Positions 5,259-60,130 of a stretch of DNA of 64,000 bases are shown here, piece after piece. The translations under genes were made by a program, and so were the position numbers. Below the pieces are notes generated by a model, which ran no database searches, was not told the origin of the DNA, and worked only from the letters and a program-made list of their open reading frames with translations. This stretch comes from Patescibacteria group bacterium (GTDB taxonomy: Bacteria; Patescibacteriota; Patescibacteriia; 2-01-FULL-39-33): the NCBI GenBank assembly GCA_041662745.1, contig JBAZRV010000004.1, positions 6,315 through 70,314 on the forward strand, written 5' to 3'. Every line of letters starts with the position of its first letter. The first letter of the stretch is position 1.

Positions 5259-5320
5259 TGATTCTTAAAGAATTGCCAAAAGCGGGCTTTAAAAAAATTA
5301 TTAGTTTTAATCTTAAATAT

Positions 5321-6823: not shown

Positions 6824-6858
6824 CAAACCGCCGCCTTCAGCCACTCGGCCATCTCTCC
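6764..6858 (-). tRNA. tRNA-Ser (anticodon GCU) with a long variable arm
   Basis: The reverse complement reads GGAGAGATGGCCGAGTGGCTGAAGGCGGCGGTTTGCTAAACCG...GGGTTCGAATCCCTCTCTCTCCGCCA. The anticodon loop is TT-GCT-AA, and CCA is encoded. Confidence 0.8.
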
Positions 6859-22400: not shown

Positions 22401-25400
22401 GCCCAGCGTTTGCTGGTAAGTGGTAGGACAAGTCTCGGTGGTGCCGGATTTAACCCATTTATCCAAATTATTGGTATTATCAGCGGAAGTAAACTGGCAA
22501 ACCTTGCCGTGCGGATCCTTGAAGTAAGCCAAGGTGTTATTCCCGACCCACTCTTCGCACCATAAATTTTCGGCTGAGCATAGATCAGTGGAATAACGAT
22601 CCGGATCGTTTTTAATATAGATATCCCGATAACCGGTAATCTCATCCCATTTGTCTATCAAAGGCAAACCATAGCGAGTGCAACCCTTATCATTCTTGGC
22701 GCAGGCATATTTATCGTCATTGACCAAATAAACCAAGGTATCAGTTGCCACAAAAATATCATCATGATTAACGCTATTGGCGATATTAAACGATTGCGCC
22801 TGAGGCGCGCTGGAATTAAAGGTATCAATCAAGGCCTCGCAACCGGCCGCTTCGGGGCGACACAAGGAAGCAAAGGATCTTAAGTAAGCTGTTTTATTCT
22901 TACGATCCGAGTAACCGGCGCAACCCAGCATTTCTCCGACGGAGCAACGTCCGGACTGGGTATCCTGGCAAACACCCTCAGCTTTGGCCTTGCTGCCGTC
23001 AGGATCATCCAATTTATTGTCGCAAGAAAGCGGAGTGAACCAAGAATTTTCTATGGCGTAAACTTGGTTAGTGATTTCCTTAAGAATAACATTATCCAAA
23101 TAAACGATCTGGCCGTTGGGCATGGAAAATTCCAAGTAATTGCCGTCGCCCGGTTCCCAGGTTACGAATAACGGCCCCAGTTCATAACGCTTCCAGTCTG
23201 CCGTCAACTGCGTCCGCGGACTGATTAGATTTTCTCCGAATAAACGGCTGGCAGAAAAATAATTATTGCCGGCGGCGGCAGAGTTGTCATTCCAATTAAC
23301 ACCGCTCTTTTCGGCAAATCTGATATTGTCAAAATAATAAGAAGCATTGCCTTTAGCCCAGAATGACAGGGTATAGGCCTTGCCCTTGTTAATTGTTATC
23401 GGATAATGAATGGTGGAATTATCAACCTTATTAGATAAAGAATTACCGCCGGGGAAGGTTGACTCGGAAGAAATGAATAAGCCGTTTTTGCCGCCATTGG
23501 CATCCTCCCATAAATCCAAAGCGGTGCTGCTGGCGGTAAAATTAACCACGCTAATGGCATTTTTGACGTTATTACCCCGGTTGCCGGTGTAAGCGCGGCA
23601 GCCCTGAGCGGCGGCAGGACAAGTTTTTCCCTGTCCGGGGATAGCCATATAAATACATTCACTGCTATCATTCCACCAACCGCTATGGCTTTCGCAATTG
23701 GCCTTGGCCTCGGTAAACGAGGTTTCGGTCATGGTGCGGCGATACGGGTGGCAATTATCGGAAACGGAAACAGTGCGGGATAATAAACGATAATGAATAT
23801 TGCCGTTTACATCATACAATTCGCGGCAATCCGGGTTGCTAACCATATCATCCTTGGTACAGACGCCAAAATCATAACGATCGCGATCCGCACCGCGAGC
23901 GCTCGTTGGATCATTGCAAACGGCATTGCCCGAAGCGTTATAAGCCAAATTAACGCAAGGAGCGCTGCCATTGCCAACGCCGGCCGTTTCTGGGTCGCTG
24001 GCGATCTGTGATTTCTTTAAGCTGAACGCCACCAGCTGGTAACCGGTGATATCGGAACCCTCCCAAGTATAATAAGCGCCGTCATCAACCGATGGTTTCT
24101 GGCAGGCCTGGATTTGACTATAATATTCTTTCTGCTCCCCGCCCTGGCCGGCAACGTCAAGATTGGTGAATTCATCGCAACCGGCATAACTGGCAGAACA
24201 AGTCTTGAGTTTGTTGTCGGCGATGAACTGCCTGAAAGCTTGATTGATAAAACTGGTCTCTTCTTGATTGTATAACTGATAGCCGGCGCATTCCTTAGGA
24301 CAAGCATCAAAATCCTGCGCCACACCCGGTATTGACGGGTCACCATTAAGGGGGCGATATAATTCACAACCGACTTCTTGCGGCGTACAAACACCGGAAT
24401 ACAGGGCGCAATTGGCATTCTTATTCTTTAAGACGCCAGTTAGCTCCTGTTGATTTTGGGGCCATTGCAAGCCGGCAAGATCCGGATAAGCATCATAACA
24501 ACTAAAGTAACTGGGGGCCTTCTTAAGGTAAGCCACTTGTTCAATCGGCCGGGTTGAAGGATTATAATCGCTATAATTACTGGGATAAGTAGCATTAAAA
24601 GAAATCGCCTCAACCTTGGCATTATCAATAATCGCCTCCTGGCCGGCCGATCCGGTGGAGAACCACAATTCCAGTTTAGCGGCGTTATCCGGCGCCTTAA
24701 ATTTACAGAAAAACCGACTGGAAGTGGCAAAGGAAGTCGGAGTAAACTTCAAAGCCAATGTTTGCGGGACACTGCCATCCTTGTCTCTGGCCCAGTCGCA
24801 AGTCGCCGAAGAAGTGGCTACCTGCAAAACGGCTCCGGCCTTGGATTTGAATCTCAAAAAAGTCTCAATCGGAACTGCCTGGTCAACGGAAGCTTGATAA
24901 CCGTCAATAGCCAAAAAATAATATTGGCCGGGAGTAACTTGGATTGCCTTATTAACATTAGCGCTATCCAAACCACTTAAATAGCCGATCTTGGCTCTGG
25001 TGTTATCTGCCAAGGTCAGATTGCTCCAATCATATAAAGTGCCGTCAAAGCCGCCGTTAATGACAACATTACCGCCCAAATTTGATTTAGTGCGGATGAA
25101 TTGGCTGCAGCCGTCGCTTAAAGACGAGCAAGTCTGAGCATCACGATCAAAATACATTTCAGTTGCGCCCTCGCGCGAAGAAACAAGGACTGATACGGCG
25201 CCGACGCCGCAAGCAGTACTGATGGGATAAAATTCAAAATCATCAAGATATAAATCGGCGTAAACCCCGGCAGGATTGCGCGCCACCAAAATCACCCGTT
25301 CATTGTCGCCGGAATTAAAATTCAAATTAGCTTCGCGCCAACCGGAGGAACCGCTGGTCAATTGCAAATTATTCAATAAGGAAGGCCATAATGAGCTGTC

Positions 25401-28109
25401 TTGATCAAAAGACGTAAAGTCTTTGCTATCGGCCCGCACTTCCACATTAACATTGCCGTTAATAGACCCTTTATAATAAAATCTAACATTATAATTGGTG
25501 TTCTTCTCTACCGGTATAGCCGGCTCGTAACTGATCAGATCGGCCGGAGCATAAAGCGTCTTAATAAAAAGCGCGGCGGCGCCACTGTGTTTTTCGGTGG
25601 TAACGCGAAGATGGCGATTGTTGTTGTCAATAAACGCCAAAGTCCAAGAAGCGGCTTTCCAGCTTTCCTGGCTGTTAAGCAACGCTTCCAAACCGAGATT
25701 CGGCTTGTTTATCACTTCGGCAGTATAGACATCGGGGAATAATTTAGCGTCATTGCATAACCGCAATTGGCAAGACACGCCATTGTCCGGAACATTGCAG
25801 AAAGGATTCTGAGGGATATAACTGGCCTGATCTGCGGCTTCGGAATACTGGAAACTGCAATAATTGCCGCCGGTAGTCTGATGGAAAACGCAACCTTTGC
25901 CCGTGACATCCAATTTACACATGTCCGAGGAGCAGGGCGAAGCCAATCGCAAACGCGAATTGGCGCTGACTTGATGGCCGGCCTGCACCCACCAATCCTT
26001 ATCGCTTCTGTTGAAAGTTATTATTTGATTGATAGTCTCAGGCGGAGCAAGTTGCGTACCGCTGCCCAAATTAGTCCAAGTCTGACTGGACGGATTGTAA
26101 TTGATGGCATACCAACGACAACCGGCCACTTGCGCATTGCAATTTCTAAAATCCAAGGTATTGGTTAAATAAGAAGAGGCATTGCCGGCGCGCGAAGCGT
26201 AGGTCTGGCAGGAATTGACTCTGGCCGGACAAGTCTTCCCCAAATCCCAAACGCGACGCTCTTCATTGCAATAGCCATAAGCCAAGCAAGCGCCGTTCTC
26301 ATCCTCTTGCAGACATTGTTGCTCGTCGGAACAGTATTCCAAGCGGCCGATGGTTCCGCTTTGATCGTCTTTATTCAGATTAAGAGCGCCGTAACCTTGG
26401 CGGCGACAACTGGTTTCATACGCTTTCAGCGTCCAGTAAGGGTCAACCATCCCCTTAAAGTTATTGGTGGTGCAACCGTTTTTGCCTATGCCTTCATAAC
26501 AATTGATCAATTCGCCCAGAGTATATTCGCGATTACTGTTAGAATTCTTAATAAAATTAGCGGCTTCTTCCCAACCCACCGGTACGATGCGGTATTGGCG
26601 TAAAACCAAAATAGAACGGTAAGGAATGGCTGTCTGCAAGGAGTTGGACTGTTCTGATCGAGGAGAAAAAACCCGGTTCTTGATTTGATCAGGCAGATCA
26701 ATCACATAGGTTTTGCTTTTAACCGCTTGGGCCAAAGAATCATCCATGACGCAGTCCATTGGTCCGGGATTAGTTTTGGCTGAGTCATCGCAAGAAGAAA
26801 GCTCAACTATTAAATCAACCTTCCCGCCTTGCTGGCCCTGGCTGCCGGAAATGGCGTTATTTATTCTTTCTTCAGCCCCCTTAGTGCCTTCAGTAATTAT
26901 CGGACTGGCCGAAGGATTAAACAAAGCGGTCAAGGCGCCGGAAAGTATGCTGGAACCTTGACTGGCCAGAGAATTGGAACTACCGCCGGATGAACCGCCG
27001 GATGATGATTGCGTCAAAGAAAACAAGCCCTCTTTTAATAACCCTAACGATTCGGCTACGACCGTATCCATGAATTCAAACGGCACAGCCATAGCTGTTT
27101 CCGTCCAAGTAATAGCGTATTGCGAGTTGCCTTTTTTCAACATGGCATCAGCCATCATTTCATGAAGCATGGTGCCGGGAGTAAGGATTTTACCATTAAA
27201 GGTTGCCTTGCTCAGCCAACCCTGATTGGTGCTGGCTTCATAAGTTTTGGCTTTGATCTGCTGATTAACCGCCGCATCGCGCAAATCCAAAGCTAACAAT
27301 GAAGCGGTGATATCATTTTCTCCGGGGCGCAAGGCCAAGGTGTACTCTAAGGGAAAATTTAGATTAGTTACGGCCTCTTGCCAATTGGTCATGATTTCGG
27401 AAAAAGTACACCTGACACGGGGAGTCGTCTGGCCTAATTGAATATTAATCAATAGCCGTACCTGCAAATCAGGCTGGCAGATATCCACGCCGTAATGCTG
27501 GCTGAAGTTATCAATAAAATCACCCAAAGCCGAGTCGGCGGCATTAAGCAGATAGGCATTCCATCCTTCGGTAATATAGGCCGGCTTCTGACCCTTAAGC
27601 GCGGTAAAAGCGATCTTGGTGGCTTCACGCGTCACGCTTCTAAGCAAGGTATCCAAGGCTTTAGAGGCGGAACTACTCAGGGCGGATAAAAATTTCCTCC
27701 GCCTTTCATCGTTCTTCACTTTTCTAATTTCTGACTTCAAATCGGCTTCAATTTGGTCTCCCGTGCTGGCATCGGAAATATACTTATTACAAACGGTCTG
27801 AGCTTCAGTTAAAGCGCTAAGTTTGGCGCCGCATTCAAATGCCGTACAAGGTATGGCCAATGCTGCTGTTTTCAATTCTTGGCACATTGCTAAAGCTGTC
27901 TTGGCAGGAACACCGGCTTCCGCTTCAGCTTCCGCTTCAGCTAAATCTATTTTTGATTGAGCTAATTGTTCATCAAAAGCCGCCTGGGGATCAACTTGAG
28001 CTAAGACATTTAAAGGGTAAAGAATCCACAAGCAACAAAAAACTACTCCCAATAAAACCATCGGGCCATAAAATCTTACACGATTATACTTATTCAGATT
28101 TAAAAGCAT
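16491..28109 (-). CDS. Giant cysteine-rich secreted or surface protein, 3872 aa, probably an adhesin or effector of the T4SS-like system
   Basis: A single 11.6-kb ORF with an N-terminal signal/TM segment (MVLLGVVFCCLWILYPLNVLAQV). It has very many Cys residues and repeated lectin/CBM-like segments (NGNFEE...GW...). No stop codon occurs across 11.6 kb. Confidence 0.7.
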   Translation of the reverse strand: MLLNLNKYNRVRFYGPMVLLGVVFCCLWILYPLNVLAQVDPQAAFDEQLAQSKIDLAEAEAEAEAGVPAKTALAMCQELKTAALAIPCTAFECGAKLSALTEAQTVCNKYISDASTGDQIEADLKSEIRKVKNDERRRKFLSALSSSASKALDTLLRSVTREATKIAFTALKGQKPAYITEGWNAYLLNAADSALGDFIDNFSQHYGVDICQPDLQVRLLINIQLGQTTPRVRCTFSEIMTNWQEAVTNLNFPLEYTLALRPGENDITASLLALDLRDAAVNQQIKAKTYEASTNQGWLSKATFNGKILTPGTMLHEMMADAMLKKGNSQYAITWTETAMAVPFEFMDTVVAESLGLLKEGLFSLTQSSSGGSSGGSSNSLASQGSSILSGALTALFNPSASPIITEGTKGAEERINNAISGSQGQQGGKVDLIVELSSCDDSAKTNPGPMDCVMDDSLAQAVKSKTYVIDLPDQIKNRVFSPRSEQSNSLQTAIPYRSILVLRQYRIVPVGWEEAANFIKNSNSNREYTLGELINCYEGIGKNGCTTNNFKGMVDPYWTLKAYETSCRRQGYGALNLNKDDQSGTIGRLEYCSDEQQCLQEDENGACLAYGYCNEERRVWDLGKTCPARVNSCQTYASRAGNASSYLTNTLDFRNCNAQVAGCRWYAINYNPSSQTWTNLGSGTQLAPPETINQIITFNRSDKDWWVQAGHQVSANSRLRLASPCSSDMCKLDVTGKGCVFHQTTGGNYCSFQYSEAADQASYIPQNPFCNVPDNGVSCQLRLCNDAKLFPDVYTAEVINKPNLGLEALLNSQESWKAASWTLAFIDNNNRHLRVTTEKHSGAAALFIKTLYAPADLISYEPAIPVEKNTNYNVRFYYKGSINGNVNVEVRADSKDFTSFDQDSSLWPSLLNNLQLTSGSSGWREANLNFNSGDNERVILVARNPAGVYADLYLDDFEFYPISTACGVGAVSVLVSSREGATEMYFDRDAQTCSSLSDGCSQFIRTKSNLGGNVVINGGFDGTLYDWSNLTLADNTRAKIGYLSGLDSANVNKAIQVTPGQYYFLAIDGYQASVDQAVPIETFLRFKSKAGAVLQVATSSATCDWARDKDGSVPQTLALKFTPTSFATSSRFFCKFKAPDNAAKLELWFSTGSAGQEAIIDNAKVEAISFNATYPSNYSDYNPSTRPIEQVAYLKKAPSYFSCYDAYPDLAGLQWPQNQQELTGVLKNKNANCALYSGVCTPQEVGCELYRPLNGDPSIPGVAQDFDACPKECAGYQLYNQEETSFINQAFRQFIADNKLKTCSASYAGCDEFTNLDVAGQGGEQKEYYSQIQACQKPSVDDGAYYTWEGSDITGYQLVAFSLKKSQIASDPETAGVGNGSAPCVNLAYNASGNAVCNDPTSARGADRDRYDFGVCTKDDMVSNPDCRELYDVNGNIHYRLLSRTVSVSDNCHPYRRTMTETSFTEAKANCESHSGWWNDSSECIYMAIPGQGKTCPAAAQGCRAYTGNRGNNVKNAISVVNFTASSTALDLWEDANGGKNGLFISSESTFPGGNSLSNKVDNSTIHYPITINKGKAYTLSFWAKGNASYYFDNIRFAEKSGVNWNDNSAAAGNNYFSASRLFGENLISPRTQLTADWKRYELGPLFVTWEPGDGNYLEFSMPNGQIVYLDNVILKEITNQVYAIENSWFTPLSCDNKLDDPDGSKAKAEGVCQDTQSGRCSVGEMLGCAGYSDRKNKTAYLRSFASLCRPEAAGCEALIDTFNSSAPQAQSFNIANSVNHDDIFVATDTLVYLVNDDKYACAKNDKGCTRYGLPLIDKWDEITGYRDIYIKNDPDRYSTDLCSAENLWCEEWVGNNTLAYFKDPHGKVCQFTSADNTNNLDKWVKSGTTETCPTTYQQTLGLSYKAATDKLQPLGPINSVTLQESSDPAYSGWVGSCSAEQSGCSEYIDPLENLASNLIPQRCEGKDVCADVSIKKNILYVLSDNLQVGDIICSDVQNVSNNLSDNFGHYLYLAVDNPKSLTCRVAFKTKDGSPIDLVRDKVGLASVSYILNSKVSGGDCNGQVDYHKGCVLFNDRSQLDYSNLINSATTSLAFSSRLTRDNNYPQGINGLSRSVPPTAATAEGKPKDANVILKSQPNRACANWLTCSTFEKKEEGQSSTLAPYFFSDQDSCLEVSACNSLGDNGICNNYLTNDAVSNDDYSPSLDANKSGFSRVGYYSFDAMTQVGQSSNVVNGNFEETFGATTQPLGWRLAVYYCASNSDCASGNPDIVYRNWQSSYVNISRDGAKAKDGVGYLKVNSGWGVISESVDILPNQEYFLSAWVHTKDLQGPGSGGRLPYAELRLRFLNSKSQPRPGLAIVDGGVYEGDWVKGEIMQIPTGLPWRQVIVHFRTGDNVSGVQLALFNMNPDGSKGIDNSKLGGYTLWDNVNLKPLLKSSANGYVDRTCRVYPSLNAPACKYNDGNNYFYGQYGYCLTPDPANNQQCLQWWPVDSIRGETLSDFSGYYSERYPLYYCLEKRTMVLDVSQYTSNFGLFGEGVNDSGMEALKFDTNAKQTKATSFRISPTWSPLFRYPFIYKFQFDGIFIAIGDTASHTLFGGALSVGMWKNLVCAKPLGIIPLPICYVPAGNGLITVSDTSSVTTPAQEEVQSWVQSNPSGRVCEYSVLATLNDSSGGGLKPCSCDNPEDNANSTCQSVVNTANCVNSTEAFSSNNNCITADLAEKYAKPISDYTYFCETTAEPCSCTGGIANCEDSVHCSNPGTNKCAKVFVDSGASAGAVGVAQTISQQNQSLNDLYGGCRGSTEDCEGQTSSFWTNTWSGISQFFNSIFGSLGNLLDIVFAPNSLNLADEDSWGGWGAVAVAGYGQLLSFVPVNIVLHVELPWHTAKKFDTSGGVLGNLAGMLIQAAGVDLGISTFGLRIITDEDSEFGKDLTDPNPAVTGDVLGFAKFLDFNKPAGMGDKMGGIAVVGNFAGKQVVEYCYKLVQVVNSGNENKAWASRLSSGSQYLDYLGKDCVKDSSISGDAIPSGVGIVTPSNAELFSDGCFYSSAYCLAESRRLYDADGALLGFYPLNLCQNFIGIDNGQGVNDPDDPTRKLYCAEGISLEGRQRTAYLNQANALNCEIAYNSRPIGESADNNYFQVHSFAKDTPSIAINDCRINYKYFCVNDRNFGAIGILRDKKLIYRRIYAAVGYNYATDYKPFGSTVAPENGQYPNEWDTRPDSGGNQPIFYEFPGGSAPPYQARAGQKSDNSLYYVDNFSVSKPDLLQLFGRSYSLWQWQADKSSDPLIGHYTDISGAISSNNSVWSLPTLYCPNNSRPANTYLSFCLVRPEFTLAQVNPTIVNSIGAVKVSFNSKIDPDQVPIRSYDIDWGDGNVSSYAGLSLASRPTSSNAFNLYHFYNYDSLANKNLRECETKVGILPLGDGTTETVEEYNDDLTKGACQEPVRSTSNPAAFHVPIKLTVRDNWASVNSITIKDLIVLRRDTYDAEQQDALAECKPASYSSALGQQCSSGNPCCSATCYWLPENEVNLNIDPTDSTQKTCCATYTGGWRRCREIGDGYCDIGEQAIDPNTDNYSPDDCGNVVADVAPIDYADGVCPETKSLDDDIDCPLGQGSLITLAHDSYDWKAFMAINTVGGGCGGAPGTGEEGEYNDERGESKGNFNFNADASTFAGYAVSSSIEYFLDLVYAPNDAESDKQLRYGDIFRLVPCFKDSYGSGSNSCPATSAVKPADAASIPVVSPIKLNIYKTQPTWLQQLFGADPSDWKAYLDACGADGDVYFKVCQNQSCDGPADKVGIGDRVVLRVVTNSAQAGSPIEASLYDVTLYAGGEDQSPTFLNTEEDASRPYKAAQVNVSPSLNFRLCNRYGNCGY

Positions 28110-41037: not shown

Positions 41038-41805
41038 TCAATTATTCTCGGTCAAATACACAAATTCGCGCGCCAAACGCTCGTAAGCCTTAGCGCCCTT
41101 GGACTTGGGATCATAGCTCAAGATGGTTTTGCCATGGCTCGGCGCCTCCGACAAACGCACGCTGCGCGGAATGACCGTACGGAAAATCTGGTTGGGAAAA
41201 TAATTGTACAGCTCGCTCAGCACATCATTGGCCAGTTTGAAACGGCTGTCATACATGGTTAGGACTACGCCTAAGATATCCAATTCCGGTTTGAGATTTT
41301 CGCGGATCAAGCCGATGGTATCAACCAATTGGCCCAATCCCTCCAAGGCAAAATATTCCGCCTGCACCGGAATCATCAATTTATCAGCGGCGGTCAAGCC
41401 GTTTAAGGTCAGAAGTCCCAAAGAAGGGGGGCAATCTATGATGATATAATCGTAGTTGTTTTTGACCTCCAATAGATTATCATACAAGCGGAATTCGCGG
41501 CGATCCAAATTGACAAACTCCACATTGGCGCCGGCCAGCGAGGTGGTGGAAGGAGCCAAATGATAATTATCATGGCCGGTCTCTACGGCCACATCGGAGA
41601 AAGAATACGGCCCGGTCAAAACTTCATACACGCCGCGGTCTAAATTTTTGGCCACGCCCAAATGCGAAGTGGCATTGGATTGAGGATCAAGATCAACCAA
41701 AAGCACGCGTTTGCCCAAATGGCTTAAAAACGCGGCTAAATTAACGGAGGTGGTGGTCTTTCCGACTCCGCCTTTTTGATTGACAACGGAAATTACTTGT
41801 CCCAT
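41038..41805 (-). CDS. parA: ParA/Soj partition ATPase
   Basis: NQKGGVGKTTT deviant Walker A motif. Confidence 0.85.
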   Translation of the reverse strand: MGQVISVVNQKGGVGKTTTSVNLAAFLSHLGKRVLLVDLDPQSNATSHLGVAKNLDRGVYEVLTGPYSFSDVAVETGHDNYHLAPSTTSLAGANVEFVNLDRREFRLYDNLLEVKNNYDYIIIDCPPSLGLLTLNGLTAADKLMIPVQAEYFALEGLGQLVDTIGLIRENLKPELDILGVVLTMYDSRFKLANDVLSELYNYFPNQIFRTVIPRSVRLSEAPSHGKTILSYDPKSKGAKAYERLAREFVYLTENN

Positions 41806-41890
41806 AACGGATTAATTATAACATAAAATTATCAACGAAGCAAAATCAAACAAAAATAAAAGCCAGCCTAACGCTGACGTTTCATTTCAG

Positions 41891-41962
<72 letters not shown>

Positions 41963-42425
41963 AAAACATGGCATATGGCTAATGGCATATAACTTATGGT
42001 TTAATTATTAACTATAAGCTATGTGCCATTTGCTATGCGCTATCTGTTGACTGGCTCGGTTGTGAACCAGCCAATATCAAGTATTATAAGGTATTTTGAG
42101 GAATTTGTCAAAGGCCGGTTTGAGGCCTCTTGGTCTAGGGGAAAATGCGACAAATGCGACAGTACTTTGGCACTTCCAATTTTATAATTCTGAAGGGTTA
42201 AATGAGACAAATGAGACACCTATAGTGTGTTTTGAAAATAGTATCAAAAGCACGTTTTATGTTTAATTTTAGATTAAAATTTGATGAGACAGCCCGATGA
42301 TGATTGTCTCATTTGCTAAATGCGATTTTTGCCAGCTCTTGACAGAATTTGAGCTTACATTTATGATTAAACATCTAGTTGTATTTGCGCTACTACCAAA
42401 TTATTTGTTATAATATAGTCAACCT

Positions 42426-42962
42426 ATGAATATTCCCCTAGTAAAATTAAAAGCAATCCTTTTGTACTTCGGGACATTTACTGAACAACGTTTTCTCGGC
42501 AAGGTAAAACTCATGAAGTTATTCTACTTCTTGGATTTTATGCATGTCAAAAAATTCGGTTCTCCGGTAACTTACGATAATTATATCAAACTAGAGCATG
42601 GGCCCATTCCCTCTGCAATAAAGAACATGGTAGACACTGCGGAGGATGATGTGGATAATTCAGTCTTGTCTGATACTATAAAAATTGAAATGGCTGACGG
42701 AGAAGGAATCCATAGAATTGTCGCTCTAAGAAAGTTCACTGAAAATGACAAAAAATATTTCACGCCGACAGAAATTAATATACTGGAAACCGTAGTAGAA
42801 AGATTTGGTAGCAAGAATACGAAGTTCATCGAAGACGCCTCTCACAATGAAGCCCCCTGGAAAGAGACTTCATTTATGGATTCAATTCCGTATTGGCTGG
42901 CTACGCATGATAATGACTGCCAGGTAAGCAGGGAGGAAATTGAGTTAATGTTGTCAATCTAG
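42426..42962 (+). CDS. Panacea-domain (DUF4065, SocA-like) protein, a putative antitoxin
   Basis: KLMKLFYFLDFMHVKKFGSPVTYDNYIKLEHGPIPS matches the DUF4065/Panacea core. Confidence 0.55.
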   Translation: MNIPLVKLKAILLYFGTFTEQRFLGKVKLMKLFYFLDFMHVKKFGSPVTYDNYIKLEHGPIPSAIKNMVDTAEDDVDNSVLSDTIKIEMADGEGIHRIVALRKFTENDKKYFTPTEINILETVVERFGSKNTKFIEDASHNEAPWKETSFMDSIPYWLATHDNDCQVSREEIELMLSI

Positions 42963-42966
42963 CCAT

Positions 42967-43359
42967 ATGGATGCTTTACTATTCGGCGATATATTTAGAT
43001 TTAGGGAGGAAGAATATGTCTACCTGGCTTCAGGCGACGGAGTCGATTTTGCGGCCAGAATCCTCAATACTTTTAATACCAACCAAATAGTGGAGTTGGA
43101 TAACCGAAAGGCAATGGGCCATGGCGCAAACAGGACTAATAGCAATCCGCTTTATTGCTATGTTATTTTGCAGACGGATGAATATAAGAATCAAGCAGCG
43201 CACTTCAAGGATAGCCAATATGATTCCGGCCGGCTAATGTTCGAAAAAACCGGTTCGTTATGCGCTGAAGACCAACAGGAAATCAAGAAGAAAATAATTG
43301 ATCCAGCCAGTCCGATCCCATTGGGTCTTAGAGATATAATTTTAAACATGGATATATAG
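42967..43359 (+). CDS. Hypothetical 130-aa protein, a candidate toxin partner of the Panacea-domain protein
   Basis: It starts 4 bp after the Panacea ORF stop and is co-oriented with it. No recognised domain. Confidence 0.4.
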   Translation: MDALLFGDIFRFREEEYVYLASGDGVDFAARILNTFNTNQIVELDNRKAMGHGANRTNSNPLYCYVILQTDEYKNQAAHFKDSQYDSGRLMFEKTGSLCAEDQQEIKKKIIDPASPIPLGLRDIILNMDI

Positions 43360-43458
43360 AAACAGATAAAAAAAGACATCCTGCGAGGGATGTTTTTTGA
43401 TTAATTGACCGATAGTTAGCCATCATATATAATTAAGCTATCACCATGAAAGAAACCC

Positions 43459-43674
43459 TTATGCAGATCCGTCTGCCTCGGGGGTTTTTTCTTTTTGGCC
43501 GATAAACAGGTAAATATAGGCGGCTTGGAATTTTTGGCTGAGCCAGCCGTGGAATTTTTTGTAATCAATGGCAAATCCCAGCTCCTGGGCGCTGCGGTAA
43601 AGGTTATTGCCGTCGATGTAAATGTTGATTTTGGACATGAGATTATGATATCGGGCTATAAACATGACAATCAA
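43459..43674 (-). pseudogene. N-terminal fragment of a NYN/LabA-like domain gene
   Basis: INIYIDGNNLYRSAQ...YIYLFIG aligns with the N-terminus of the full NYN protein at 50866-51402 (AFIDSNNLYQS...FLFIGF). The fragment breaks off after 71 aa. Confidence 0.5.
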
Positions 43675-43680
43675 ACTAAT

Positions 43681-45690
43681 TTATTTAACTTTAAATTCCC
43701 TAGCTTGTTCTTTTTCTGTCCTTTGCCATTTTTCAAATTCAACTGGAATACCATTTTCTCTCCAAAACTCAGCCCAATCTTTATACGCCTCAATTAGATA
43801 GGGAAATCTTCCAATTTTTCTTGCTGCACTCCTTGCATAACCATCGCTTAAATAAAAATCTCTAACCAACTTTTTTTGTGACGCCACGATTTCGCCAACA
43901 TCCACGGAGGATTCAATTGTCGGCGCCTCTTGGTCTAACACCTCCCATTCATCCCATCCCTCGCTTATCAATTCATCAAGTGTTTTATCAGTATCAATAA
44001 TTTCACCATTAGCATCATTATATTTTAATTTTGCAGTCCTTCCTAGAGCTGTTTCTGGGTATGGCGTTTCTGGGGCGACTCTTATATGATCAATTTCTAA
44101 AAATCTCTCTCTTTCTCCATCTCTTAATCCAAATCTTTCTGCAACTAAATCAGATAGCTCTGTTGCCGTATAAGTATTGGCATTTTCTCCCTCTTGTGAC
44201 GATTCAGCTTGTCTATCAAAAATAAATTCCACTGCCTGGCGGAGAAGTTCATAATCAGAAAAAAGCTGTTTTGGAATCTCCAGTTCTAACAATACTCTTG
44301 CCTTTTGCTCGAATAATTCGTCCTGGTTTTCTCTGCCCCAAACAAAATATCCTCTAGTAAACATTCCAAGGTCGCTTGATCGTTTTAATGACCAAACAGC
44401 ATTAGTATATTTTTTTATACCCTCCTGCATTAACTTCTCTCTATCAGCTTCTCCAGTCGGCCTTTTAAGGTTAACCACGTCAATGGGATTAAATGCTTCT
44501 ATTCCTATTCCAATTTTAGAACAACCAGATTTTTTCATAAGCTCCAAAACCTTCTCCGCTTTTCCGCTTACTATTTCCTTTTCGTCGAAAGCTCTTGCCA
44601 GACAAAACCAGTGCACCAATTCTTTATCCTCATCGCTGAATACGCCACTTTTAATCATTTTCAAGCATAGGTCTTCGACATGCTGAATATTTTCGTTAAA
44701 AGTCAAATCTGCAAAATATACAAAATTTGTCCTATATTCAGGATCATCATGATATTTCTTTATTTCAGTGACTATCGATTTCGGATCCCTATACTTTACT
44801 GGCGTTCTATACCTACCACTGCCAGTATCCTCGCCCCAAACCATGGGAGAACTGCAAAACTCACAATTACCTGGGCAACCGCGACAGGAAGAAATCTGAA
44901 TTTCACCTCTTATCTCCTTATGAGAAGGAAAACTACCAAATTGAGTACAGTCTACACTTGAAGGCACCTCCTTAACACCTTCAACCACCCCGTCATTATT
45001 TTTGACGGGAACAACGATCCTCCTATACGCTTCAGGCAATACTTCGAGTTCCTTGTTGGTCATCCTTTTTCTCGGTCTGAATTCATTTACGGCCCCATCC
45101 TCTCTATAAATAATTCCCTCAACTCCAGAAAAATCAGCTTGCCCTTCTTCAACTTTTTTCGCTAATTCTAAAATAGTTTCCTCACCCTCTCCAATAACAA
45201 AAAAATCGACTAAACTAATATTGTCTCCTAATTCTTTTTTCAATTCCTCTTCCCAGGCATTATATTTTTTACTTAAATAAACTTTATCTTTCATGGCAGA
45301 TATATGATAGCCGCCGATTACAATCTTTATTTCTGGATCAGCTTCTTTAATTTTTTTAGCGATCTGCAATGCGCGGTTAAACAGCGGAGTAATAGCACTA
45401 ATTCCAACCATCATACAATCTCCCTGCCTTTTAATGACTTCAGCAATATCTTCGTCAGTTATGTTTATGGGTTCTTCGCCCTCGGGAGTTCCGTCTAACG
45501 CAATCTCGATGTGTTTTCTTTTTACTGGCCTTTGATGAATTAGAGAAACATCAAAACCTCCTCGATCTTTCAAAAATCCTCCTAGTGTTTCTATGGCATA
45601 TGGAGGAGCCTGATTGCCCCTTTTTGCTGGTTCTGGTGTAAAATTCATGCCACCTATGGGCTCAATTAAAATAACTCTTGATTTTGGCAT
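43681..45690 (-). CDS. B12-binding-domain radical SAM protein with a 200-aa C-terminal extension
   Basis: An N-terminal B12-binding-like region is followed by CPGNCEFC (CxxxCxxC). The C-terminal 200 aa has no match I can recognise. Confidence 0.65.
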   Translation of the reverse strand: MPKSRVILIEPIGGMNFTPEPAKRGNQAPPYAIETLGGFLKDRGGFDVSLIHQRPVKRKHIEIALDGTPEGEEPINITDEDIAEVIKRQGDCMMVGISAITPLFNRALQIAKKIKEADPEIKIVIGGYHISAMKDKVYLSKKYNAWEEELKKELGDNISLVDFFVIGEGEETILELAKKVEEGQADFSGVEGIIYREDGAVNEFRPRKRMTNKELEVLPEAYRRIVVPVKNNDGVVEGVKEVPSSVDCTQFGSFPSHKEIRGEIQISSCRGCPGNCEFCSSPMVWGEDTGSGRYRTPVKYRDPKSIVTEIKKYHDDPEYRTNFVYFADLTFNENIQHVEDLCLKMIKSGVFSDEDKELVHWFCLARAFDEKEIVSGKAEKVLELMKKSGCSKIGIGIEAFNPIDVVNLKRPTGEADREKLMQEGIKKYTNAVWSLKRSSDLGMFTRGYFVWGRENQDELFEQKARVLLELEIPKQLFSDYELLRQAVEFIFDRQAESSQEGENANTYTATELSDLVAERFGLRDGERERFLEIDHIRVAPETPYPETALGRTAKLKYNDANGEIIDTDKTLDELISEGWDEWEVLDQEAPTIESSVDVGEIVASQKKLVRDFYLSDGYARSAARKIGRFPYLIEAYKDWAEFWRENGIPVEFEKWQRTEKEQAREFKVK

Positions 45691-45888
45691 ATGAGAAATT
45701 AACTATTATTTCCTATATTTTACTACCTTTTAAGTCCTATTGCAAACTTAAAACTTATCAACTCTTTACCTACTCCAACCATCCTGGACTCCTCAAGAGG
45801 GTTGCGTCATCAATGTCCATAGTAATAACCAAAAACTATAGACAACAACCAAAAATCAAGGGTTTCAAGTGATTTTCAAGGCGATTTA

Positions 45889-47151
45889 GTGCCACTTAAG
45901 TACTGCCTTTATGCCAGAAAATCGACCGAGGCCGATGACAAGCAAGTGTTATCCATCGAATCCCAAGTCAAAGAGATGCTGGCTCTGGCTAGCAAGGATT
46001 CCTTAGATGTAGTAGAAATCAAGCGGGAAGCCCACTCATCTAAGGATGTTGGCCAAAGGCCGATTTACAACGAAATGATTTCTGAAATCAGAGCGGGCAA
46101 GTTTAACGGCATTCTGACCTGGGCGCCGGATCGGCTCAGCCGCAATGCCGGAGATTTGGGCTCAGTTGTGGATTTGATGGATCAGAAACTACTTTTGGAA
46201 ATCAGGACGTATGGCCAGAAGTTCAGCAATAATCCCAATGAGAAATTCCTGTTAATGATTTTAGGCAGCCAAGCCAAGCTGGAAAATGACAATAAAGCGA
46301 TTAACATTAAAAGAGGACTCCGAACCAGGTGCGAAATGGGCTGGCGGCCGGGCGTGGCTCCGACCGGATACTTAAATGAAAAACACGCCGACAAAAAGTG
46401 CCAATCCCGATTAGATCCCAAGAGAGCTGTCATTATCAAAAATATGTTCGAGAAATCGGCTAATGATAATTGGAGTGGCCGAAAAATCTACAGATGGCTT
46501 CGCGAGATTGACTTTAGAACTAAGACCGGCAAGCGATTAGTTTTGGCCAATGTCTATCTGATTTTAAGAAATCCATATTACTACGGTGAATTTGAATTCC
46601 CGGTGGGTAGTGGTAATTGGTACAGTGGCAAACATACGCCGATTATCACTAAGGAACTATTCGACAAAACGCAATTAGCCCTTAACGACCACAATCTACC
46701 TAAGACCGAGAGCAAGGAATTCGCCTTCACTAAACTAATTAAATGCGGCTATTGCGGTTCGGGCATTTCGGCTGATGAGAAATTCAAGAAGCTTAAAAAC
46801 GGCGGCACTAACCGCCATGTCTATTATTTTTGCTCCAAGGCCAGAAATATAGATTGCAAAAATCAACCGATTAATGAAACCAACTTAATCACTGAACTGG
46901 CCGGCTTAATCGATCGGATCAGCTTGGATGAACTGGGCGTCCAGCAGAAAATTGAGGATGAATTCAAAAGATACAACAAATTCAGAATCAGCGTGCTGGG
47001 TAAAAAGAATGAGGAATGCAATAGCGAAGTGGACATCAAGAATTTCGTCAAATACCTACTTAAAGACGGCACGATTCTGGAAAAACGAGAATTGCTTGCT
47101 TGCCTTAAAAGCAGATTGATCCTAAAAGACAGGCAAATCAGTTTGGAATAA
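45889..47151 (+). CDS. Large serine recombinase, 420 aa
   Basis: YARKSTEADDKQVLSIESQ...APDRLSRN catalytic motif and a C-terminal CGYCG...YYFCSK Zn ribbon. Confidence 0.8.
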   Translation: MPLKYCLYARKSTEADDKQVLSIESQVKEMLALASKDSLDVVEIKREAHSSKDVGQRPIYNEMISEIRAGKFNGILTWAPDRLSRNAGDLGSVVDLMDQKLLLEIRTYGQKFSNNPNEKFLLMILGSQAKLENDNKAINIKRGLRTRCEMGWRPGVAPTGYLNEKHADKKCQSRLDPKRAVIIKNMFEKSANDNWSGRKIYRWLREIDFRTKTGKRLVLANVYLILRNPYYYGEFEFPVGSGNWYSGKHTPIITKELFDKTQLALNDHNLPKTESKEFAFTKLIKCGYCGSGISADEKFKKLKNGGTNRHVYYFCSKARNIDCKNQPINETNLITELAGLIDRISLDELGVQQKIEDEFKRYNKFRISVLGKKNEECNSEVDIKNFVKYLLKDGTILEKRELLACLKSRLILKDRQISLE

Positions 47152-47164
47152 ATCTAAAACTAAA

Positions 47165-47192
47165 AATACCGCGGAAAAACCGCGGTATTTTG
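47165..47192 (+). terminator. Rho-independent terminator after the recombinase gene
   Basis: AATACCGCGGAAAAACCGCGGTATTTT. Confidence 0.65.
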
Positions 47193-47241
47193 TGGCTAAA
47201 TCAGTGATACCTCTCGGTCATTTGACTTAGCATAAGCGTGT

Positions 47242-47314
47242 TGCGGGGGGCGGATTCGAACCGCCGACCTCTTGGTTATGAGCCAAGCGAGCTGCCGGAC
47301 TGCTCTACCCCGCG
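47242..47314 (-). tRNA. Initiator tRNA-fMet (CAU)
   Basis: The reverse complement reads CGCGGGGTAGAGCAG...GGCTCATAACCAAG...GGTTCGAATCCGCCCCCCGCA, with the C1:A72 mismatch typical of bacterial initiator tRNA. Confidence 0.8.
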
Positions 47315-47359
47315 ATAATATTTTATTTTCCCTCTCTCCTTAAAAAGATGAGACTGGTG

Positions 47360-47441
47360 TGCCCGAGGAGAGACTCGAACTCTCACATATTGCTATACAC
47401 GATTTTGAGTCGTGCGCGTCTACCAGTTCCGCCACTCGGGC
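47360..47441 (-). tRNA. tRNA-Leu (CAA)
   Basis: The reverse complement reads GCCCGAGTGGCGGAACTGGTAGACGCGCACGACTCAAAATCGTG, followed by a long variable arm and GAGAGTTCGAGTCTCTCCTCGGGCA. Confidence 0.8.
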
Positions 47442-47446
47442 CTGAG

Positions 47447-47685
47447 TTATAACAAACTTTTTAACCATTCTTTACCACAACCTGACTTTAAATATTTTTC
47501 TCTTTGTCTTGCATCTATTCTCGTACTATACTTTTCTGTTATAATCATTTTAAATGGTCGATAAAATCTTGTTGTCCTCTCTCGTCCATTATTGTGGCGA
47601 CTAAATCTGTCATCAAAATCAGAGGTTTGACCGACATAAATATAATTATGTTTTATACTTTGCAAGGCATAAACAGTATACTCCA
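47447..47685 (-). CDS. GIY-YIG nuclease-superfamily protein (YhbQ/UPF0213-like), about 79 aa from the internal Met
   Basis: MEYTVYALQSIKHNYIYVGQTSDFDDRFSRHNNG...REKYLKSGCGKEW. The ORF-track start at 47749 lies inside the tRNA-derived sequence. Confidence 0.6.
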
Positions 47686-47699
47686 TAAGAAAAATATTT

Positions 47700-47755
47700 A
47701 AAGTCGTGCGCGCCTGCCTGCCGGCAGGCAGGTCTACCAGTTCCGCCACTCGGGC
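47700..47755 (-). other. Duplicated 5' half of tRNA-Leu (pseudo-tRNA or att-like remnant) carrying a 19-nt palindromic insertion
   Basis: The reverse complement reads GCCCGAGTGGCGGAACTGGTAGAC[CTGCCTGCCGGCAGGCAGG]CGCGCACGACTT. Outside the insertion it is identical to tRNA-Leu positions 1-37, and it ends inside the anticodon loop. Confidence 0.7.
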
Positions 47756-50865: not shown

Positions 50866-51402
50866 TCATTTGTGTTTATTTTTATACTCCAACTTACCTT
50901 TCAAAACATTCAAAAAAATCAAGATATTATTTGCCGGAGAACTTAAGCGATCCAAAAGACAAGAATAATTATTTTGATTCGGAATTAACACTCTCTTGAG
51001 TTTTGCGTTATTGATCAGATATTCTACCAAACAATAAAAATCACCATCACCGGAGACAATAATGGCCTTGTCATAATTAGAGTGTTCAATCATAGTATGC
51101 AATACCAATTCGGCATCTACATTACCCTTAACCGTACCATCGGCTAATTCCAGCGTCGGTTTAAACACGCAAATATAGCCATACTCCTGTAATTTTGTAT
51201 ACATCGCTTGATTGCCGGGTTTAAAGCCAATGAACAGGAAGGCCTTTTCAATGCCATATTTATCCTTAAGATAAACCCTGAATCTTCTATAATCAAGTTG
51301 CCAGCCGGAATAAATTTTCCGGTCTTTTTTATAAATGTCTTTTGACAAGCTTTGATATAAATTATTGCTGTCAATAAAAGCGTAATTTTTTTCTTGCGGC
51401 AT
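50866..51402 (-). CDS. NYN (LabA-like) domain protein
   Basis: YAFIDSNNLY...IIVSGDGDF, an NYN/PIN-like core. Confidence 0.55.
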   Translation of the reverse strand: MPQEKNYAFIDSNNLYQSLSKDIYKKDRKIYSGWQLDYRRFRVYLKDKYGIEKAFLFIGFKPGNQAMYTKLQEYGYICVFKPTLELADGTVKGNVDAELVLHTMIEHSNYDKAIIVSGDGDFYCLVEYLINNAKLKRVLIPNQNNYSCLLDRLSSPANNILIFLNVLKGKLEYKNKHK

Positions 51403-51422
51403 ATTATTTTATATAGATAATC

Positions 51423-52481
51423 TTAGCAAGTATAAGCCAAATTAGCAATTTTTCGTTGTAACTTATAGCTCTGGCCGTGACTCAATAAACCCAAATATGA
51501 ATTTATGGTCTCCAAACTATGGTTTCCTCTCACTCGCCTGAACATTCTTCTTTTACTCGTCGTCCGAAACACCCGATGGTCAAAAAAAGTCACCCAGCCA
51601 AGAAAGTCCAAACCGGAGTTCAGGGTTTTAATGAATAACTTATCAGGATGAAGCATCAGCTTCATTTTATCTCTCAAATATTCATCAATTATTGGAATAA
51701 TATTTTCCAAATATTCTTTATCGTCAGCCATAATCACGAAATCATCGGCATAACGGATATAATGCTTGACTTGCAATTTATGTTTGACGAATTGATCAAA
51801 CTTGTTCATGTAAATATTAACCAAGAGTTGTGAGGTCAGATTGCCTAATGGCAGACCCCTACCACCGCCATTATTCCCACTCTCCCTCTTGTCATTCCCG
51901 CGGAGACGGGAATCCAGGTTATCTTCAATATTATCAAAACTGTCAATTACTTCATCCAATAATCCTAAAATACTTTTATCCGGGATATACTCGGCCAGAA
52001 TCTCTTTCAATATCCTATGGTCAATATTGGCAAAAAATTTCCTGATGTCACCCTTCAAAATCCAGCAAGTGCGGGTATTATTTTTGCTGGCGGCATAAGC
52101 GAATTCCCTGAACCGAGCCAGGGCCTTGTGCGTGCCCTTGCCCAGTCGGCAAGAATAGGAATCGGCAATGAAAGTCCGATCAAAAAACGGATACAAAATC
52201 CGATAAATCGCATGGTGAACCAATCTATCGCGGACAGACGCCTTATGAATTTGCCGCGGTTTGGGATCGCAGATCTTAAAGGCCTGGTAGCCGCCGTGGC
52301 GATAAACACCGGTTGCCAAATACCGATGCAATGCGATAAGATTATCCATGAGGCGCAATTGGAATTCCTGCGCGTCTTTTCTGCCCCTTTTGCCCCTGAC
52401 AAATTCCTGCCAAGCCAATAATAAATTATCAAGACAAATAATATCTTCAAAAGTATGGCTCAATTTGATTTTCCCGTTCAT
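51423..52481 (-). CDS. Diversity-generating retroelement (DGR) reverse transcriptase. It contains an in-frame MITE-like insertion.
   Basis: YADD box (YIRYADDFVIM). Motif 4 is LGNLTSQ, the DGR-type I/LGxxxSQ rather than the group II QGxxxSP. SYSCRLGKGTHKAL motif. There is no room for intron domains V/VI. TR, avd and VR are adjacent. RBS AAAGGA precedes the ATG at 52481. Confidence 0.75.
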   Translation of the reverse strand: MNGKIKLSHTFEDIICLDNLLLAWQEFVRGKRGRKDAQEFQLRLMDNLIALHRYLATGVYRHGGYQAFKICDPKPRQIHKASVRDRLVHHAIYRILYPFFDRTFIADSYSCRLGKGTHKALARFREFAYAASKNNTRTCWILKGDIRKFFANIDHRILKEILAEYIPDKSILGLLDEVIDSFDNIEDNLDSRLRGNDKRESGNNGGGRGLPLGNLTSQLLVNIYMNKFDQFVKHKLQVKHYIRYADDFVIMADDKEYLENIIPIIDEYLRDKMKLMLHPDKLFIKTLNSGLDFLGWVTFFDHRVFRTTSKRRMFRRVRGNHSLETINSYLGLLSHGQSYKLQRKIANLAYTC

Positions 52482-52869
52482 AATAATTCCTTTAATTACC
52501 CCCCCCCCGACGGAAGATTTATCAATCATCAAAAAACTCGTTGAGACCTTTAAGCTCTGGCACGGCTATGTAAAGCATTTCCCCAAAACCTCCCGCTATT
52601 CGTTGGGCGGAAAAATAGACGGCCTGTTTTCTGATCTGATTGAATCGGCATACACCGCCGGCTATCTGCCCCAAACGGAAAAACTGCCGTTCATAGAAAA
52701 ATCCATCGACAAACTGAATTTGCTTAATTTTTTTATGCAAATCGCCTGGGAGCTGAAGGCGTTTGACAACAACAAATACAAAAATATTTCCTTATTGCTT
52801 AATGAAATCGGCCGAATGCTGGGCGGCTGGCGCAAACGGATAAAAAAAGAAACTTCCGCCCCAAAATAA
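52348..52869 (+). CDS. avd: Avd-like four-helix-bundle protein. The functional start is probably near 52515; no ATG is in frame there, so a non-canonical start or frameshift is possible.
   Basis: The C-terminal 115 aa (IKKLVETFKLWHGY...NEIGRMLGGWRKRIKK) resemble the four-helix-bundle/Avd family. It is located between the RT and TR2. Confidence 0.55.
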   Translation: MRRNWNSCASFLPLLPLTNSCQANNKLSRQIISSKVWLNLIFPFIIIPLITPPPTEDLSIIKKLVETFKLWHGYVKHFPKTSRYSLGGKIDGLFSDLIESAYTAGYLPQTEKLPFIEKSIDKLNLLNFFMQIAWELKAFDNNKYKNISLLLNEIGRMLGGWRKRIKKETSAPK

Positions 52870-59621: not shown

Positions 59622-60130
59622 ACTAAGTCAAAAGACTTTAGATTTAATTTTGGGGATGTTTTGCTTTGATAGAGATAATGTTTTCCTATTAGCAAACCGA
59701 GCATGACGGCAAACTCGTTAATCCGCCGTCACAGGCAAAATGCCAAAAACATCTTAGCTAAGGTCCAATCTGCTTTTAGCAGCCTGGCTTTGGCTCCTGT
59801 TCTCGCTTAATATCGAGAACCATCGCCGCGCCCATTCCCGGTAAGCGCCAAGCGGTGTTATATTATCGGGATCGCCAATGGCGTCGCCAGAGCGCTTTTG
59901 GTCAAACTTTTCTGGACCGCTTAAGAATTTTTTGCCGCTTTTTCAGTTCTTAAGTCAAAATTTAAAACGGCTAAGTTTGTATCACTTTAGGGGATAATTT
60001 ATTTCTAGACAGGGGCTCATTACCCCTCATCTCCACATACACAGCATATGGCTTATGGCATATGGCTTATGACAGTTTCTTCTGCTATTTGCTATATGCT
60101 ATATGCTATGTGCTATAAGCTAACAATACC

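Follow-up and report, generated by a model that had tools for sequence, protein, structure and literature searches.

A small mosaic integrative island beside tRNA-fMet in a Patescibacteria genome and the large serine recombinase family that probably placed it there

What occupies the interval between two neighboring tRNA(CAU) genes in the genome of a Patescibacteria group bacterium, and by what means did it arrive there? The interval lies in a 64,000-nucleotide stretch of contig JBAZRV010000004.1 (assembly GCA_041662745.1), hereafter called the window, and had been described from its letters alone—the original prediction—as an integrated element. The block proves to be a real small integrative island and, with regard to the original prediction, a fairly ordinary one. 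According to the explanation favored here, to which we assign a probability of roughly 0.7, positions 42045–47238 constitute an integrative element of about 5.2 kb whose own large serine recombinase (LSR) inserted it directly 3′ of tRNA-fMet, in the short spacer separating this gene from tRNA(CAU). The most interesting result reaches beyond the island: the recombinase belongs to a huge, conserved family of the Candidate Phyla Radiation (CPR) that is consistently set against tRNA 3′ ends and displays recognizable end motifs.

The chromosomal setting was delineated with ARAGORN and Rfam, which place tRNA(CAU) at 41890–41962, a second tRNA(CAU) at 47240–47314 and tRNA-Leu(CAA) at 47359–47441, all on the minus strand. 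Since the second tRNA(CAU) combines a C1xA72 mismatch with A11, both of which are initiator features, it is regarded as initiator-like (tRNA-fMet). The minus strand carries, one after the other, tRNA-Leu(CAA), tRNA-fMet, the block, tRNA(CAU), parA (41038–41805) and parB, and this order is found again in a second assembly of the genome (L001). The genes reported for the interval are present as claimed (ARAGORN, Rfam, Pfam, open reading frames (ORFs)), as are the terminator that separates the recombinase gene from tRNA-fMet and the repeat-rich noncoding stretch that follows the other tRNA (41963–42425). A search of the block against Rfam at permissive thresholds retrieved no known RNA family except tRNAs, a weak match to the rimP leader coinciding with the terminator. 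Among species-representative genomes the best ParA match is only 61% identical, and no close genome surfaced in that way; relatives were found by a metagenome scan using the neighboring glycosyltransferase, and two of them are informative. On a 958-kb contig (L087; flanks about 86–88% identical at the DNA level), tRNA-Leu, tRNA-fMet, an 87-bp spacer consisting of a hairpin, tRNA(CAU) and parA follow one another with no genes between the two tRNA(CAU) copies. On a 262-kb contig (L092; flanks about 77–85% identical), the same chromosomal site harbors a different cargo of 2.9 kb, comprising an AstE/AspA-like gene, a GNAT gene, a TrpR-like gene and a full-length NYN gene. In five more distant relatives, 10–577 bp separate the two tRNA(CAU) genes. 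The block also deviates in composition: its GC content is 0.395, that of the remaining window 0.452 (z −2.9), and its tetranucleotide distance (z +4.0) exceeds that of every other segment of equal size. Synteny of the block is thus broken among relatives, and the empty site of L087 together with the deviant composition identifies it as an acquired island, in agreement with the original prediction.

Module boundaries were derived from BLASTN alignment to L092 together with the junction sequences. The noncoding stretch next to tRNA(CAU) (42042–42331) is common to L092 (14914–14647) at 79% identity; 42332–43425 is a 1.1-kb insertion relative to L092, which carries a Panacea gene pair with its own promoter and terminator and has TTGAC on both sides. 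The 3.55-kb segment 43647–47198, which comprises a B12-binding radical S-adenosylmethionine (radical SAM) gene, the LSR gene and the terminator, occupies the place of TrpR/GNAT/AstE in L092, and the final 41 bp ahead of tRNA-fMet are again 95% identical between the two. GC content varies by module from 0.35 to 0.44. Judged from these alignments, the element is not one uniform unit but a mosaic whose cargo turns over. Its features are collected in Table 1.

Table 1. Features of the island and its immediate flanks (coordinates refer to the window)
Feature	Position	Strand	Remarks
tRNA(CAU), elongator Met or Ile2	41890-41962	-	left chromosomal flank; 86% conserved in L087, L092 up to 41962/41965
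Probable ancestral tRNA-tRNA spacer remnant	41963-42044		76-nt palindromic hairpin; L087 spacer also a hairpin
Left-end block	42045-42331		junction TGTTG 42045-49; T-arm-like hairpin, GAACC 42064-68; CCTCTTGGTC 42126-35
Outward consensus promoter (predicted)	42083-42111	-	TTGACA-17-TATAAT, 12/12 matches; aimed at tRNA(CAU) and parAB
Toxin-antitoxin cassette (putative)	42332-43425	+	promoter 42339-42367; PanA 42426-42962; PanT candidate 42967-43359; terminator 43376-43393
Panacea/SocA protein	42426-42962	+	PF13274, E 3e-19
130-aa ORF	42967-43359	+	4 nt 3′ of Panacea gene
Promoter-like site, then hairpin and T-run	43405-43495	+	antisense to NYN 3′ end; 93.5% vs L092
NYN nuclease gene remnant	43459-43638	-	keeps N-terminal ~47 aa and last ~12 aa
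71-aa ORF	43459-43674	-	ORF list
669-aa protein	43681-45690	-	B12-binding and Radical_SAM domains
420-aa LSR	45889-47151	+	Resolvase, Recombinase and Zn_ribbon_recom domains; YARKST intact
Intrinsic terminator, bidirectional, 12-bp stem	47163-47191		would end LSR and tRNA-Leu/tRNA-fMet transcripts
Right-end motif GATACCTCTCGGTCATTTGACTTAGCATAAGCG, then junction TGTTG	47205-47243		abuts tRNA-fMet 3′ end
tRNA-fMet, inferred integration target	47240-47314	-	gene sequence identical to L087 copy

The recombinase matches PF00239 with 67.8 bits (cut-off 23.3) as well as PF07508 (51.4 bits) and PF13408 (31.2 bits), both above their cut-offs, and S12 of the YARKST motif is invariant in 17 homologues. 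Its best PHROG match is PHROG 95 'integrase' (E 1e-58) and its closest solved structure SPbeta SprA. In a collection of 5.8 billion proteins, at least 8000 homologues score at E ≤ 1e-30—all 8000 scored candidates do so—and the best 120 matches are 72–80% identical, the source-named ones all belonging to CPR lineages; the housekeeping protein ParA, by comparison, reaches no more than 61% identity among species-representative genomes. In contexts independent of one another, the LSR gene stands tail-to-tail with tRNA-Gln(TTG) (L168, L169 and L170) and with tRNA-Gln(CTG) in L171–L175 and in the IMG/VR contig L177. The genes upstream of it vary and include those for Csx3, AAA proteins, DNA methyltransferases, rve, thioredoxin, PIN_12 and ParB-methylase/VRR-NUC proteins. 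A profile scan of IMG/VR yielded 57 loci with LSRs 43–75% identical: a tRNA gene lies downstream of the recombinase in 17 of them, on the opposite strand in every case (Ser in seven, Gln in five, one each of Asp, Glu, Asn and Trp), several of these tRNAs being located at the contig end, and an upstream tRNA occurs in one locus only. No paper linking large serine recombinases with the Candidate Phyla Radiation was found in the literature searched.

Multiple copies of this type of recombinase were encountered as well. Five predicted viral contigs each carry two members of the LSR family, at distances ranging from a few kb to tens of kb (L192/L213, L197/L209, L224/L227, L229/L231 and L249/L250). 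The window itself holds a second LSR gene (5186–6823) whose 545-aa product is 34% identical to the island LSR and whose ORF runs tail-to-tail into tRNA-Ser(GCT) (6764–6858); upstream of it lie a low-GC stretch (0.34), a gene for a bAvd-like protein (2701–3348) and one for a 378-aa protein. The region 2701–6858 probably represents another island of broadly this type.

The recombinase-proximal end of the island is marked by a motif, GATACCTCTCGGTCATTTGACTTAGCATAAGCG, that is unique in the window, where 0 matches are expected by chance. All LSR loci of the close clade contain its core, GTCANNTGACTTAGCAT, which mostly abuts the tRNA 3′ terminus, often right after the encoded CCA. The motif adjoins a tRNA in L168–L177; in L179–L187 no tRNA was detected beside it and degenerate sequence follows, Rfam at permissive thresholds finding no known RNA family over the L179 site. 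It is absent from L087 and other relatives. Exact matches in IMG/VR number 0, the close clade being scarcely represented there and L177 lying two bases off. For a second copy or half-site, the window and the related loci offer only matches with 3–4 mismatches, treated as chance, and two apparent matches in L171 fall within coding sequence. In the wider LSR family, (G/A)GTC is found 18–23 nt from the tRNA end in most loci. As the sequence between this tetranucleotide and the tRNA tracks the LSR clade and not the identity of the tRNA, the arm beside the tRNA is element-borne. In two IMG/VR contigs (L200 and L209), the element-type arm is followed by GCGG and non-tRNA sequence, making these sites candidates for unintegrated attP.

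The right-end motif (47205–47238) contains a strong and complete palindrome, CTCGGTCA-TT-TGACTTAG. In generalized form this palindrome reads CTCrGTCA-NN-TGACTtAG, with TT at the center in the window and in L092 and CC in the elements linked to tRNA-Gln. A crossover at the palindrome center was considered, in which case the tRNA-side arm would be chromosomal; it was dropped because that arm is absent from L087 and five other relatives and tracks the recombinase clade. Some 85 nt into the left end, the octamer TCTCrGTC is encountered again (window 42126–42135, L169 1047–1056, L179 2142–2150), its A/G variant co-varying between both ends of each element. Just inside the right-end motif of L092, at 12036–12110, a tRNA-like fragment, GATTCGAACC, is followed by an anticodon-arm-like hairpin, TAGGATTAAAATCCTA, and is possibly the relic of an earlier integration.

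At the opposite end, the region 41963–42425 contains two copies each of AATGCGAC and AATGAGAC, one inverted copy and a 76-nt palindrome; within the left-end block, the AATGCGAC and AATGAGAC repeats are arranged in tandem at 42144–42160 and 42201–42217. The core of this block (GAGGCsTCTCrGTC, then tandem AATGmGAC) is also present in L169 and L179, elements residing at other chromosomal sites. An nhmmer model of the left block was discarded as evidence, since it recovered only its own input sequences and its E-values are circular. The hexamers of the outward promoter (42111–42083) are kept in L092, and the site may function in that direction. Both ends open with the same 5-mer—TGTTG at 42045 and 47239 in the window and likewise in L092, GGCTG in L169—and exactly 20 nt past it, at both ends, stands GAACC (background frequency 7e-4 per position), which belongs to the tRNA T-arm at the right end and to a T-arm-like hairpin at the left end. 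Of the att-like direct repeats that had been anticipated, these two motifs at equal offset are what was found, and aligning the two ends globally gives no significant match. The hairpin next to tRNA(CAU) (41963–42044) is probably old spacer located outside the element; L092 is devoid of it and has only about 12 nt there. A related ~76-nt palindromic hairpin occurs elsewhere in the window: 41966–42041 and 60044–60122 are 75% identical and built from GCTATATGC-like units, one situated just upstream of tRNA(CAU) and the other directly after the tmRNA gene (59652–60038).

These observations can be accommodated by a mechanism in which the LSR would pair the attP of the element with a chromosomal attB that comprises the 3′ end of the tRNA and the trailer behind it, with the acceptor/T-arm portion of the tRNA as the inner arm. 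Strand exchange would take place at or beside the tRNA 3′ terminus, so that the tRNA would stay intact and the LSR gene would end tail-to-tail with it. The insertion would split what was probably a single tRNA-Leu/tRNA-fMet/tRNA(CAU)/parAB transcription unit; because the element appears to supply both a bidirectional terminator behind tRNA-fMet and an outward promoter before tRNA(CAU), the two halves would still be expressible. The interior would represent modular cargo in turnover, consisting of PanA with a MazF-fold candidate, a decayed NYN gene and the single-gene radical SAM enzyme. Of all this, the insertion polymorphism, the domain content, the association of the recombinase family with tRNA genes and the conservation of the end motifs are demonstrated; the LSR as mobilizing enzyme, the position of the crossover, the parts played by promoter and terminator, the activity of the toxin and the chemistry of the radical SAM enzyme are deductions.

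Several points weigh against this scheme. L092, which is devoid of the recombinase gene, retains both end blocks including the right-end motif. Neither a second full att site nor a long direct repeat is present, no repeat of at least 12 nt joining the ends, and the global alignment of the left end with the tRNA half does not rise significantly above shuffled sequences (z about 1.6). The palindrome of the right-end motif and the TCTCrGTC octamer of the left end are not explained by a simple attL/attR model, the end motifs revealed no crossover dinucleotide, and no candidate for a recombination directionality factor was recognized among the ORFs of the element. The L087 spacer has no clear sequence in common with the ends in the window, so precise excision is not demonstrated. 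As for the cargo, the MazF-like fold matches of the 130-aa protein are weak (E 0.03–0.8, though with probabilities up to 1.0), and none of the other nine members of the radical SAM family lies near such a recombinase, which argues that this gene joined the element secondarily.

A different history has to be considered in which the inter-tRNA spacer is a hot spot that gathers unrelated pieces, the LSR being a passenger or mobilizing only the 3.55-kb segment 43647–47198. The sharp module boundaries relative to L092, the separate TTGAC-bracketed Panacea cassette, the replacement of TrpR/GNAT/AstE by the radical SAM and LSR genes, the GC differences between modules and the presence of ends without an LSR in L092 would all fit such a history; however, the left block, which lies far from the LSR gene, recurs at the far end of the LSR elements L169 and L179 elsewhere, the right-end motif travels with the LSR family, and no end motifs flank the 3.55-kb segment alone. 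This explanation is thus considered unlikely, although it is the strongest of the competitors. A domesticated or host invertase or resolvase acting on a palindromic site, in an island that arose otherwise, would account for the complete palindrome CTCGGTCA-TT-TGACTTAG, for the JGI label 'DNA invertase Pin-like' and for the unusual conservation of the family (72–80% identity across CPR lineages for the best 120 matches). Yet the protein possesses a complete LSR architecture, recombinase and zinc-ribbon domains included, and has 'integrase' as its top PHROG match, its gene is missing in L087 and L092, and the family resides in variable islands and predicted proviruses; since each locus contains a single copy of the site, there is no partner for inversion. 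It seems very improbable that the recombinase is an enzyme of this kind.

The cargo has likewise invited an interpretation of its own, namely that the radical SAM enzyme, the toxin-antitoxin pair and the NYN gene form an anti-phage defense island in which the radical SAM enzyme modifies nucleic acid or peptide. LSR relatives do carry DNA methyltransferases, PIN_12 and Csx3, and toxin-antitoxin systems with Panacea antitoxins have been tied to phage defense (PMC10440598). In the island itself, however, the NYN gene is broken and PADLOC returned no real match for any protein, its only signal being one of 13.6 bits (E 0.005). The radical SAM family, too, lacks a conserved partner: its full architecture is represented by only 10 members among the 5.8 billion proteins, and no neighbor is conserved around the other nine. 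Among these, one has rve transposases on both sides (L003), others adjoin a flavin reductase (L167), NusA (L166) or a gene for an AP-endonuclease-fold protein (L006), and one shares a plasmid-like contig with Replic_Relax, PLDc_2 and another B12-dependent radical SAM gene (L005). The defense role that had been proposed for the enzyme therefore finds no support, and a defense island is deemed improbable, more so than the hot spot and less so than the invertase.

The targets of well-studied large serine integrases are protein-coding genes or intergenic sites. SPbeta SprA, Listeria A118/LI Int, Bxb1 and phiC31 integrase share with the island LSR the three-domain architecture, the catalytic serine motif and the position of the gene at the edge of the insert; unlike these phage and integrative and conjugative element integrases, the island enzyme is only distantly related in sequence (E 2e-13 to SprA), is shorter than most with its 420 aa, and apparently targets tRNA 3′ ends of many identities. 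Genomic islands mobilized by tyrosine integrases, as cataloged in Islander (PMC4383910), resemble the present case in lying 3′ of a tRNA that remains functional and in having tRNA-like sequence at the far end, whereas here a serine recombinase is employed and an exact duplicate of a tRNA fragment is replaced by a 5-nt repeat and a T-arm-like hairpin. The nearest published analogues are the tycheposons of Prochlorococcus—small cargo elements at tRNA genes of streamlined genomes—27 of 937 of which use a large serine recombinase (bioRxiv 10.1101/2020.12.28.424599); they belong to another phylum and apparently to an unrelated sequence family, and the island is devoid of a replication module. The cassette recombinases CcrA/B/C of SCCmec also act on small cassette islands next to a conserved housekeeping RNA-related gene, and CcrB is the best NCBIfam match of the island LSR. 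The score of 123.9 bits, however, stays far short of the cut-off of 900; the island has a tRNA in place of rlmH as its target and a single recombinase in place of a pair.

A broader and tentative proposal is considered possible rather than probable. It holds that a CPR-wide LSR family, very abundant and unusually conserved, has adopted the universally conserved T-arm/acceptor end of tRNA genes for the inner arm of its attB. The T-arm sequence GGTTCGAACC would serve as the distal half-site motif and find its mirror in the (G/A)GTC that lies about 20 nt off in the element, nearly any tRNA 3′ end would be a landing site, and elements ranging from 5-kb islands to proviruses of at least 50 kb would constitute a main route of accessory and defense gene flow in Patescibacteria. 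CPR/Patescibacteria genomes are tiny. If the family does integrate at tRNA 3′ ends, the succession of recombinase, end motif and tRNA would be a simple means of delimiting islands and proviruses across thousands of CPR genomes, the local hypervariability seen around tRNA clusters would be explained, and compact integrases of about 420 aa with natural, conserved targets would become available. Two cargo families also deserve experimental testing: the Panacea-paired toxin candidate of about 130 aa and the rare B12-dependent radical SAM enzyme, which appears to move as a single gene between mobile elements.

The Panacea (DUF4065) domain of the first cargo protein is recognized by PF13274 with 70.4 bits (cut-off 25.7). 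PanA antitoxins are known to neutralize PemK/MazF-like toxins, and an antitoxin-first gene order is common (PMC8832971). On sequence criteria, the Panacea protein is classified as a PanA-type antitoxin and the pair as a member of the PanAT systems, with which it shares the position of a Panacea gene upstream of a gene for a small unannotated protein across a gap of 4 nt. In contrast to the PemK/MazF-like PanT toxins validated previously (PMC8832971), the putative toxin family has no Pfam or PDB sequence match. A word-index search with the 130-aa protein found one homologue only; the family emerged through exhaustive HMMER searching and comprises 232 cluster representatives, all of 104–147 aa, which mostly match over nearly their full length. 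In a single extra locus (L191), a 39%-identical partner homologue follows a 61%-identical Panacea protein with the same 4-nt spacing. The AlphaFold model of the 130-aa protein (pLDDT 89) retrieves structures of MazF-family toxins as its top 49 PDB matches in Foldseek, which is suggestive of a MazF-like PanT toxin.

The NYN gene had been described as truncated by abutment against the radical SAM gene. Its identity as a NYN gene is upheld through L092, whose full-length homologue encodes 173 aa (PF01936, E 4e-15) and is 96% identical to the first 47 residues of the window fragment; the fragment itself yields no Pfam match, a complete PF01936 domain being absent. The truncation has to be revised: the gene is 91–94% identical to that of L092 and is missing the counterpart of L092 14207–14543, an in-frame internal deletion of 337 bp with a 5-bp overlap, so the fragment is a deletion remnant and not the product of truncation against the neighboring gene. 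The best-conserved stretch of the island relative to L092 (43405–43495) lies antisense to the 3′ end of this remnant. Its near-consensus promoter, TTGACC-17-TATAAT, has a near-copy that drives the Panacea cassette, and its hairpin with T-run overlaps the last 11 NYN codons on the opposite strand. From the arrangement of these signals, the stretch could yield an antisense RNA of about 50 nt, and the hairpin may double as a bidirectional terminator.

The 669-aa protein scores above the cut-offs for both of its domains, with 49.8 bits for PF04055 (cut-off 29.5) and 47.1 bits for PF02310 (cut-off 32.1), and the cysteines of the CX3CX2C motif (C272, C276 and C279) are invariant in its family. Its structural model (pLDDT 79, pTM 0.83) matches OxsB, AprD4, CysS, MgmA and TokK in Foldseek with E-values of 2e-14 to 1e-7. 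With these enzymes it shares an N-terminal Rossmann-type B12 domain, the CX3CX2C barrel and a helical C-terminal part, and it differs from them in an identity of only 12–15% and in family-specific insertions such as residues 461–530. A comparison with NCBIfam subfamilies (BchE, HpnJ, PhpK, the MCR Gln methylase and others) gave 16 radical SAM matches, all far below their cut-offs, the best being BchE with 76.5 bits (cut-off 481). There is no SPASM Pfam match and, with respect to SPASM or twitch domains, no conserved cysteine past residue 390 of the family alignment; the family profile aligned with PDB sequences only in short matches around the cluster motif. Classification with profile models, as advised in the original prediction, thus places the protein in class B and in neither the SPASM group nor any named NCBIfam subfamily: by sequence and model, it is best described as a class B cobalamin-dependent radical SAM enzyme of a rare subfamily. 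Methyl transfer to unactivated carbon is the commonest chemistry of class B radical SAM enzymes, and methyltransferase-type chemistry is most likely here as well, although this is a guess.

A novel C-terminal domain of about 200 aa had also been ascribed to this protein. Pfam does leave the region unassigned, but it is not a new domain: in BLASTP, a 473-aa relative (P0012) aligns to residues 5–460 and again to residues 531–641 (P0012 369–462), the latter alignment taking in the PYPxT strand motif and the FY.S..Y...K....PYL helices. Because P0012 aligns on both sides, the extra length results from an insertion of about 70 aa (461–530) together with smaller ones.

Beyond the island, a 290-bp insertion (47442–47755) containing a gene for a small GIY-YIG protein (ORF 47447–47749; PF01541, E 1e-16) abuts the 5′ end of tRNA-Leu(CAA); neither L087 nor L092 has it. 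An exact duplication covers the first 24 nt of the tRNA (47418–47441 = 47732–47755) and lengthens to about 40 nt when a 20-nt GC hairpin of the displaced copy is disregarded, and a 53%-identical GIY-YIG homologue in L095 (13078–13362) also abuts tRNA-Leu(CAA). The insertion has the look of a tiny mobile gene that targets tRNAs and is transcribed together with the tRNA operon. In L007, L008, L046 and L051, tRNA-Leu(CAA) is found about 100–140 nt upstream of parA in an orientation opposite to that in the window. A low-GC patch at 50866–52532 comprises a reverse transcriptase gene (RVT_1, 51423–52532, minus strand) beside a full-length NYN paralogue (50866–51402); together with the bAvd-like gene at 2701–3348, 48 kb away, the RVT_1 gene hints at parts of a diversity-generating retroelement. 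Finally, a single ORF of 3872 aa (16491–28109, minus strand), with weak matches to CBM_4_9 and Endotoxin_C only, probably encodes one of the giant surface proteins that are common in CPR.

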